Below, in pieces: positions 51,862 to 60,954 of a stretch of 64,000 bases of DNA (positions are counted from its first letter, which is position 1; every line of letters starts with the position of its first letter). Made by a program: the position numbers and the translations under genes. The stretch covers positions 436,883-500,882 of the forward strand of contig CAWDXE010000004.1 of the NCBI GenBank assembly GCA_963806185.1. Direction: 5' to 3'. The notes under the pieces were generated by a model. It searched no databases and was not told where the DNA came from. It saw only the letters and a list, made by a program, of their open reading frames with translations. The DNA is from an uncultured candidate division Zixibacteria bacterium (GTDB lineage: Bacteria > Zixibacteria > MSB-5A5 > GN15 > FEB-12).

Positions 51862-52070
51862 GGAAACGGTCAAAATGCGGTCAGAGAGCAGTTCGTGCGC
51901 CAATCGCGTGCCCGGCGCTCGGATTGCGTGAGCGCGATGAGAAGGATATTGTCATTCAGGCAAACCGGCCGGGTCTTTTCTTGAGGGAAACCATAACGGG
52001 AAAGGCCATTCGCACTGCGTGAATGGCGGGAATACTGATTTGGCCTTCTGGTGGATGACAATGAAAGAAA

Positions 52071-52144
52071 TACCGGGGGGCAGGTTCGAACTGCCGACTT
52101 CCAGTTCCACAGACTGGCGCTCTAACCAGCTGAGCTACCCCGGC
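52071..52144 (-). tRNA. tRNA-His (GTG), no encoded G-1, G1:U72, A73, CCA not encoded
   Basis: Cloverleaf GCCGGGG TA GCTC AGCTGGTTA GAGC G CCAGT CT-GTG-GA ACTGG AAGTC GGCAG TTCGAAC CTGCC CCCCGGT A. Confidence 0.95.
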
Positions 52145-52156
52145 ATCGCGACCGGC

Positions 52157-52184
52157 AAAATACCCGTTTGCTTCAGAGTGTCAA
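52157..52184 (-). promoter_or_regulatory. Putative sigma70 promoter of tRNA-His
   Basis: TTGACA-N16-TATTTT followed by a GC-rich discriminator, 12 nt before G1. Confidence 0.55.
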
Positions 52185-52260
52185 GGCTTTTGACTGCGTC
52201 GTCGCCGCCCGCGTGCACGGCTAGGTCAATTGGGCAGAACCAGCTTAACGACTACGGTTC

Positions 52261-52596
52261 TCAGGTGCAACTGCTGCAACCACCACCGGTCCCGCAATTG
52301 CCCGATGGCTTACCGGCTGATATCACATAGCCGCTGCCAAACTCTCGGGTGACATAGTCGATATTGATATCCCCCAACTGCGTAATGTACTCATTTACCC
52401 GGGGATCAATCCAGGCAATAACCCCGTTCGACTCCAACTTCTCCAAACCGTCGATTGACTCTTCCAGAGCCATTCCCAGCGAGGGGCCGCTTCACCCGAA
52501 ACCCTGGAAGAAAATGATGAGATTGTTCTTCTTATTGGGTTCGAAATCAAAAACCTTCTTCAATTCTTCACTGGCGCTATCAGTAATGACGAGCAT
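52261..52596 (-). CDS. HesB/IscA-like selenoprotein (Sec35)
   Basis: ATG 52596 follows AAAGGA. MLVITDSASEELKK...FFQGFG-TGA(52492-52494)-SGPSLGMALEE continues in frame into ORF 52261..52473, which ends NCGTGGGCSSCT. Confidence 0.85.
52456..52472 (-). promoter_or_regulatory. Candidate bacterial SECIS hairpin
   Basis: UGGCUCU-GGA-AGAGUCA. The G-starting apical loop begins 27 nt after the in-frame UGA. Confidence 0.6.
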
Positions 52597-55667: not shown

Positions 55668-57224
<1,557 letters not shown>

Positions 57225-57372
57225 TAAGGAGCTACGGTGTGATCTCGTCACGCCTTACGGATTGAGGACCTTCCGAGGTCGAGCGACACATTGACGAATT
57301 TCCCTTGTCTTCAGTTGGCTATTTACATAAATATATTCGCGCCATCAGGCGAGCATCGGCTCGGTGGCCATT

Positions 57373-57446
57373 GGGCCTATAGCTCAGTTGGTTAGAGCGC
57401 GCGCCTGATAAGCGCGAGGTCAGTGGTTCAACTCCACTTAGGCCCA
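57373..57446 (+). tRNA. tRNA-Ile (GAT)
   Basis: GGGCCTA...CGCGC CT-GAT-AA GCGCG...TAGGCCC A. Confidence 0.97.
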
Positions 57447-57462
57447 TTTGAAAAATGGGTGC

Positions 57463-57535
57463 GGGGATGTAGCTCAGTTGGGAGAGCGGTGGCTTTGCAA
57501 GCCACAGGTCACCGGTTCGATCCCGGTCATCTCCA
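57463..57535 (+). tRNA. tRNA-Ala (TGC)
   Basis: GGGGATG...GTGGC TT-TGC-AA GCCAC...CATCTCC A, with G3:U70. Confidence 0.97.
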
Positions 57536-57600
57536 GAATATGGACTCCTCGACGCTTGAGGCGGACAGAAAATTTCGTTCCGCTCCGAGCGGAACCAGCT

Positions 57601-57613
57601 GTTCTTTGACAAC
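57601..57613 (+). promoter_or_regulatory. boxA (spacer)
   Basis: GTTCTTTGACAAC. Confidence 0.7.
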
Positions 57614-57715
57614 TTCATAGTTGGCTTATGTAAAGAAATACGTCACGGGTATCTTCCAACAGGCTGCGCAGACAGCGCAGCAGTGAAGATGCTCTATTTA
57701 GGTAATGTAGGTTTT

Positions 57716-60729
<3,014 letters not shown>

Positions 60730-60835
60730 TATAAATTTCTACCTAAGATGATCTCGCTGGAATCGCACCTGTGCAGCCGGTGAGCATGACAGCGGAACGA
60801 TCCTGATGTTCTTATCAGCTGACCTATGACAAATA

Positions 60836-60954
<119 letters not shown>

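Follow-up and report, generated by a model that had tools for sequence, protein, structure and literature searches.

The tRNA-His gene at positions 52071-52144 of the window (the whole stretch of 64,000 nt of Zixibacteria DNA analysed here) is a real tRNA-His with U-1, a G1:U72 wobble and discriminator A73 in place of the G-1:C73 pair. We consider it very probable that this G-1-less tRNA is the housekeeping tRNA-His of the organism and that it is served by a single histidyl-tRNA synthetase (HisRS) of the Caulobacter type, and likely that the two genes share a history as a cassette. The biochemistry of such a system is already known; its range over phyla and its likely mobility go beyond the literature consulted.

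A tRNA-His gene without the G-1:C73 pair

Both ARAGORN and Rfam (67.8 bits) call a minus-strand tRNA-His(GUG) of 74 nt, including U20a. CCA is not encoded, and A73 is followed by TTT. The features of the gene, and of the synthetase gene elsewhere in the same assembly (G000), are as follows.

52071..52144, minus strand: tRNA-His(GUG), positions 1-73, G-1-less type (ARAGORN, Rfam, base reading, public contig)
52145, minus strand: position -1, T and not G (base reading)
52144, 52143, 52124 and 52110-52108, minus strand: G1, C2, U20a and GUG (base reading)
52071..52073, minus strand: G71 at 52073, U72 at 52072 (G1:U72 wobble) and discriminator A73 at 52071 (base reading)
52106..52110, minus strand: anticodon GUG with G37 and A38 (base reading)
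52123..52131, minus strand: 9-nt D loop with U20a (base reading)
52157..52184, minus strand: sigma-70-like promoter TTGACA-16-TATTTT, 12 nt upstream of the tRNA (consensus match only)
G000:C4:371000-372329: hisS, sole copy, with a one-base frameshift; 117 kb from tRNA-His, outside the window

A sequence-only reading of this DNA had described the gene as a tRNA-His lacking G-1:C73 and carrying U-1, G1:U72 and A73, and base reading at 52071-52145 agrees. The T that it pointed to at position -1 is indeed present at 52145, but it is uninformative because T-1 is common among the tRNA genes of this genome (24 of 45; opposite A73 in 21 of 45); U-1 is thereby ruled out as a special feature. What marks this tRNA out is U72, A73 and the absent G-1:C73 pair. 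The 9-nt D loop with U20a is not diagnostic within Zixibacteria either, since canonical tRNA-His genes of the phylum also have D loops of 9-10 nt.

The promoter search upstream of the gene returned one site, against a mean of 0.3 in shuffled sequences; such a sigma-70-like promoter would yield a stand-alone tRNA-His transcript with a short leader. Minimum-energy folding of the tRNA with its leader gave an uninformative z of -0.9. The hexamer TGCCGG after the -10 box (52152-52157, minus strand) is the same as the start of the tRNA (-1 to +5; 52140-52145, minus strand); this repeat, which pairs with the 3' acceptor strand in the folding model, is probably due to chance.

A short Cys-tailed ORF (52261-52473 and upstream, minus strand) ends about 115 nt upstream of the tRNA; it presumably resembles HesB/IscA-like proteins. 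The window also contains a full rRNA operon (55668-60954; 16S, tRNA-Ile, tRNA-Ala, 23S, 5S), and upstream of it lie genes for many secreted peptidases (S8, M16, M43, C10) and for proteins with Cys-rich C-terminal tails. We take these dockerin-like tails of secreted proteins to be typical of Zixibacteria. Elsewhere, the genome encodes a tRNA-Sec (C7:74419-74514).

Across all 8 contigs of the assembly (3.65 Mb, 82% complete), this gene is the only real tRNA-His; a second ARAGORN call, His(ATG) on contig C5, lacks a T-loop and does not represent a tRNA. A second, canonical tRNA-His with a canonical HisRS, which the sequence-only reading had named as evidence against its claim, was sought, and neither these genes nor a canonical remnant was found in the 82%-complete assembly. 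At that completeness, the claim of a sole tRNA-His and a sole HisRS leans on relatives. Reads with G at -1 and C73 were the other result that would have told against the claim. Among the three public runs compared, one short contig alone spans the tRNA: this 151-nt contig of run X1 corresponds to 52069-52188 without a single differing letter and so has U-1, U72 and A73. This identity and the same tRNA ends across relatives exclude a sequencing error.

Those relatives were surveyed at several depths. A similarity search supplied 30 loci (the window's own and 29 from relatives), a set biased toward the query; each of them has a non-G at -1, G1:U72 and A73. A neutral pattern for the G71-U72-A73 ending hit 119 of the 131 genomes from the order and matched once in the control. 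The C72-C73 ending occurred in 2 of the 131, once as a chance non-tRNA match and once in the bin G630 (8% contamination), which has a canonical tRNA-His besides a U72-A73 tRNA about 1.5 kb from its hisS. Near-complete relatives have the U72 type only.

Across the phylum, 85 tRNA-His genes, one per genome, comprise 49 with non-G/U72/A73, 34 with G-1/C72/C73, 1 with C-1/U72/G73 (G087) and 1 with G-1/U72/U73 (G163). Position -1 is not G in 50 of the 51 U72-type genes; among those with U72/A73 it is T in 45 of 49 and A or C in 4 of 49. In rows with a 9-nt D loop, A38 is present in 41/41 U72-type tRNAs versus C38 in 22/22 canonical ones. Some tRNAs paired with a HisRS of the G-1-less type do carry G at -1 (G163, G365, G462, G481). 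The base at -1 in 120 metagenome tRNA matches is T in 97, G in 12, A in 7 and C in 4. With G-1 accompanying U72/A73 in these 12 of 120 matches and in 3 of 12 tRNAs of Acidobacteriota and Planctomycetota, position -1 is unconstrained. The two variant ends occur with the same HisRS type, G-1/G1:U72/U73 in G163 (L137:524-598) and C-1/G1:U72/G73 in G087 (L072); in both, CCA is encoded and the base at -1 can pair with that at 73. They are possibly intermediates, or position 73 may be loosely read.

A Caulobacter-type HisRS and the probable route to charging

The sole hisS of the genome is split by its frameshift. Proteins of a closed relative served to test 110 conserved genes, and 10 of these genes are split by frameshifts in this assembly, among them hisS, one lysS-like and one IF2-like gene (names by inspection); a smaller sample of 13 gene regions, too small a sample for this purpose, showed no split besides hisS. 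With indels this frequent (about 1 in 11 conserved genes frameshifted), broken genes in G000 are doubtful, and we read the hisS split as an assembly error; a truly broken or recoded hisS is rejected on the same count. For identity comparisons, hisS was read through with X at the frameshift.

The HisRS is 69% identical to that of a family relative, 38-45% to alphaproteobacterial G-1-less enzymes (36% for one) and 24-26% to the E. coli and canonical Zixibacteria enzymes. In an alignment of 97 rows, with two mis-extracted rows skipped, its motif-2 loop, DKPGPGR, places Lys-Pro-Gly-Pro opposite E. coli Arg116-Pro-Gln118-Lys. The Gln118 position is Gly in this enzyme and in 30/30 alphaproteobacterial rows; Gly, Asp or Ala in 28/28 Zixibacteria and 18/18 other rows of the G-1-less type; and Gln in 15/15 G-1-type rows. 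The motif-2 comparison suggested by the sequence-only reading thus returns the Caulobacter-type Gly, not the E. coli-type Gln. The Fig. S1 legend of PMC3937112 describes the motif-2 Gly as unique to the RRCH clade. At the G-1 pocket, Asp-Asp occupies the columns aligned to E. coli Asn74-Gly75, an assignment made by alignment in a column that varies in canonical enzymes too; the accessible part of PMC4357726 reports that two aspartates block this pocket in Caulobacter HisRS (Gly-Gly elsewhere).

The anticodon domain carries an insert of 18 residues, compared with 16-20 in 30/30 alphaproteobacterial rows and 0 in 15/15 G-1-type rows. In a structure model of a related Zixibacteria enzyme, rather than of this one, the insert forms two short helices. 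It is absent from 3/3 SAR11-like enzymes and thus cannot be the sole anticodon reader; a role in anticodon reading was proposed for it in the accessible part of PMC3064791. Solved structures matched by the related-enzyme model are human (best, TM 0.72), Nostoc and Elizabethkingia HisRS, at about 30% identity, and no structure of a G-1-less-type HisRS was found among solved structures. A search of HisRS clusters at 50% returned 28 of 150 with a G/D/A-type loop by a rough pattern, a figure not usable as a count.

By analogy with Caulobacter, RNase P would cut the tRNA-His precursor at +1, so that the T at -1 leaves with the leader; CCA would be added after transcription, and no G-1 would be. The single Caulobacter-type HisRS would then charge the tRNA by reading G1:U72, A73 and GUG instead of G-1:C73. 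The genome has a type A RNase P RNA, and CCA is encoded in only 3 of its 45 tRNA genes. All four tRNA-Arg of the genome have G1:U72, C2:G71 and A73, the same as tRNA-His. The anticodon or an anti-determinant must therefore separate His from Arg, and anticodon reading is likely essential here. For one alphaproteobacterial HisRS, the available text of PMC7590224 reports that G1:U72/A73 mattered more than the anticodon. An origin of this tRNA-His from a tRNA-Arg, with which it shares the acceptor end, is not supported by mean identities computed without the anticodon (Thr 72-73%, Lys 70%, Arg 62-67%, canonical His 64%).

Three other accounts of the tRNA were weighed. RNase P might cut one base upstream, so that a retained U-1:A73 pair gives an 8-bp acceptor stem that replaces G-1:C73. 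The prevalence of T-1 among U72/A73 genes of Zixibacteria (45/49) and the ability of the C-1/G73 and G-1/U73 genomes to form such a pair fit this idea, yet T-1 opposite A73 is ordinary in this genome, 4 of the 49 genes combine A73 with an A or C at -1, and the metagenome matches include all four bases there; we judge it very unlikely. Slightly less likely still is that G-1 is added opposite A73 by Thg1 or an unknown guanylyltransferase and then read by HisRS. A73 is the eukaryotic discriminator, and human HisRS is the best fold match of the related Zixibacteria model (TM 0.72, 30%), with Elizabethkingia and Nostoc nearly equal. However, Asp-Asp stands where the accessible part of PMC4357726 puts the block of the G-1 pocket, and addition of G-1 lowered the efficiency of Caulobacter HisRS 5-fold, as given in the accessible part of PMC3064791. 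A search for Thg1 (PF04446) gave nothing in this genome and hits in 0 of 201 genomes of the phylum, with a positive Methanosarcina control; this leaves the Thg1 route, and with it the Thg1-type editing that the sequence-only reading had entertained, without support. Finally, the gene could have arisen in assembly, or it could be a surplus copy that is not charged, with the canonical pair lying in sequence that the assembly misses. Completeness of 82% and the rate of frameshifts leave some room for this; an independent contig that is identical over the gene, near-complete relatives with this type only and the lack of any trace of a canonical hisS make it the least credible of the three. A housekeeping G-1-less tRNA-His charged by the single Caulobacter-type HisRS remains the reading that we adopt.

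Pairing, linkage and probable replacement of the two genes

In 45 Zixibacteria with both genes read, the tRNA type equals the HisRS type in 44, as 27 pairs of a U72 tRNA with a non-Gln enzyme and 17 of a G-1/C73 tRNA with a Gln enzyme; the exception is G630. No test statistic is attached to this pairing because kin are not independent. The U72-type tRNA lies directly upstream of hisS in 23 of the 27 and within 184 nt in 22. The four unlinked cases all come from the family of this genome, where six same-contig cases are 42-239 kb apart. In G010, of the same family, tRNA-His and hisS are still adjacent, and the two genes likely moved apart later in this family.

Some cassettes have a histidine ammonia-lyase-like gene (PF00221) right after hisS (L408:10912-12585 in G163; L079 in G037); its homologue in the present genome lies elsewhere, on C7. 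Four metagenome contigs (L244, L250, L281, L314), which we take to be SAR11-like, also place a G-1-less tRNA-His immediately ahead of hisS; in the three of their enzymes that were aligned, the C-terminal insert is missing. In the acidobacterial locus L233 (G385), an integrase-like ORF follows the G-1-less tRNA-His and hisS is elsewhere; insertion of an element may be one way of splitting the cassette. A third HisRS type, the Bacteroidetes type, occurs with canonical G-1:C73 tRNA-His in families f6 (L069, G086) and f10 (L071, G111), and Zixibacteria thus have at least three HisRS types.

A swap within one genus is recorded in G082 (100% complete, 1% contaminated): its single tRNA-His and single hisS belong to the G-1-less type and are separated by 25 nt. 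The tRNA-His of the congeners G075, G078 and G091 is canonical. G075 and G078 keep the canonical hisS in front of aspS; G082 matches them on both flanks of this site, but its gap measures 0.8 kb against 2.0 kb and contains no hisS. A Pro(UGG)-Arg(UCU) tRNA cluster has tRNA-His after it in G075 and none after it in G082, where the cluster is on the contig with the cassette. Since G082 is without canonical hisS and tRNA-His at the sites that its congeners keep, the direction was likely from canonical to G-1-less.

Outside the phylum, we searched for the U72-R73 type of tRNA-His, not the canonical type, and found it in 7/201 Acidobacteriota and 5/201 Planctomycetota genomes, counts that include the centre genome chosen for the enzyme. 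In six of the seven Acidobacteriota, the gene immediately precedes a hisS of the G-1-less type; in the seventh, and in the four planctomycetes besides the centre genome, a hisS of that type is present at another place. The phyla with this HisRS type are at least those named here, and the genome-wide HisRS matches listed were mostly from Alphaproteobacteria. One HisRS of this type carries the name Ca. Uabimicrobium amorphum, which may offer a cultured host. As to phages as a vehicle, viral contigs yielded 55 HisRS-like loci, five of them at 44-47% identity to the query, and none of the 17 tRNA-His matches on viral contigs had a hisS just downstream. Three viral contigs (L360, L366, L368; 28-251 kb) have one common G-1-less tRNA-His with CCA encoded.

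Probable history of the cassette and relation to known systems

For a careful HisRS tree, 40 rows were picked from the 97 for speed, with Bacteroidetes-type and Vescimonas enzymes as outgroups and without cellular eukaryotic, spirochaete or cyanobacterial enzymes. All 36 G-1-less-type enzymes form one clade (support 96/97; 98 with other outgroups). The HisRS of this genome branches with the enzymes of its own order and of two further Zixibacteria families (100/99; f1, f4 and f3 together). Nine alphaproteobacterial rows form a clade (100/99) inside a 19-row clade (100/100) that also holds Planctomycetota, Acidobacteriota, Calditrichota-named and other Zixibacteria enzymes, and this nesting was kept in a quick tree with canonical and giant-virus outgroups. 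Zixibacteria enzymes are spread over at least four distinct subclades, interspersed with those of other phyla. Grouping the 27 non-alphaproteobacterial rows together was rejected (p-AU 1e-13), as was monophyly of the 16 Zixibacteria rows within the clade (p-AU 1e-51), values that overstate the case because both groups were named after the quick tree had been seen. Although G017 (L065) is of the same family as this genome, its HisRS belongs to another G-1-less subclade and is sister to the G082 enzyme, which suggests that one cassette was replaced by another.

The evidence bears out the sequence-only reading that a G-1-independent pair exists in a non-proteobacterial lineage, identified as Zixibacteria by the source names of family-level homologues (the HisRS of a same-family genome matches proteins named Zixibacteria at 69-82% identity). 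Of the two origins that it had offered, horizontal acquisition is backed by the tree, the rejected monophyly and the G082 swap, and an independent origin is not supported, given the single supported clade with alphaproteobacterial enzymes and the signatures in common with them. The U72-type tRNA-His of Zixibacteria show 79% identity with their counterparts in Acidobacteriota and Planctomycetota, 71% with those of Alphaproteobacteria and 67% with canonical tRNA-His of their own phylum; these values, though noisy as 74-nt identities, fit co-transfer of the tRNA, not remodelling of the host gene.

The same charging mechanism could belong to an ancient system that was inherited vertically and lost differentially. 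Near this genome, the enzyme does follow family and order kinship (f1-f4-f3), and the tRNA type extends over the whole order. Against this stand the dispersal of Zixibacteria enzymes over at least four subclades among other phyla, the rarity of matches in Acidobacteriota (7/201) and Planctomycetota (5/201), and the scars of a recent swap in G082; we regard vertical descent as improbable. It is likely, rather, that Zixibacteria acquired tRNA-His and hisS together on several occasions, as a cassette of two genes that took the place of the canonical pair. Going further, we favour, with moderate confidence, a G-1-less code that is not of alphaproteobacterial origin: a mobile cassette, at its most diverse in uncultured phyla such as Zixibacteria, by which the canonical pair was replaced wholesale time and again, with G082 as a case within one genus and the ancestor of Caulobacter and Rhizobiales as just one recipient, served by a non-proteobacterial donor.

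As described in the accessible parts of PMC3064791 and PMC3937112, the Caulobacter/RRCH/SAR11 system shares with the present tRNA the lack of an encoded G-1, G1:U72, G71, A73, a 9-nt D loop and G37. The enzymes share the motif-2 Gly in place of Gln, the acidic G-1 pocket, the anticodon-domain insert and membership of one clade. Because every testable defining feature is present, we equate the Zixibacteria case with this known G-1-less system. It differs in phylum, in an enzyme with only about 40% identity that branches outside the subclade of the alphaproteobacterial enzymes, and in a tRNA-His without encoded CCA. In addition, the tRNA stands directly before hisS in most Zixibacteria lineages with the G-1-less system, whereas none of the alphaproteobacterial hisS loci among the matches listed has a tRNA-His within 2.5 kb.

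The canonical G-1:C73 system (E. coli; T. thermophilus, 4RDX; 34/85 Zixibacteria) has in common with the present one the GUG anticodon, the class IIa HisRS fold and RNase P RNA. In contrast to it, the present system has no G-1, U72/A73 rather than C72/C73, and a HisRS that is 24-26% identical and is without the Arg and Gln residues of motif 2. Eukaryotic tRNA-His, whether Thg1-dependent or of the Thg1-less kind of Acanthamoeba and Trypanosoma, resembles it, in the sources as far as accessible, in A73 and the lack of an encoded G-1; however, the phylum sample has no Thg1, and giant-virus HisRS, used as eukaryote-type stand-ins, fall outside the clade. The transfer of archaeal-type TyrRS and TrpRS into CPR bacteria, in the accessible text of PMC5370408, is a parallel in that a tRNA identity rule apparently crossed lineages with its synthetase. 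It concerns other amino acids; here, the exchange is among bacterial phyla, the tRNA-synthetase pair is linked and the old pair is deleted.

The accessible text of PMC3245924 places the unusual HisRS only in these alphaproteobacteria, and the accessible portions of PMC9976931, PMC5370408 and PMC5389517 draw the same limit. In the literature consulted, mostly freely accessible papers without their supplements, we found no report of the system outside Alphaproteobacteria and their phages. An order-wide system, linked pairs elsewhere, a within-genus swap and a nested tree would weaken the G-1-less trait as a marker. They also offer a bacterial donor for the alphaproteobacterial trait in place of the debated eukaryotic donor. 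The many natural HisRS/tRNA-His variants, about 40% identical to that of Caulobacter and including U72-G73 and G-1/U72/U73 ends, would serve for mapping how the anticodon is read, and, by analogy, their use as orthogonal pairs is plausible.
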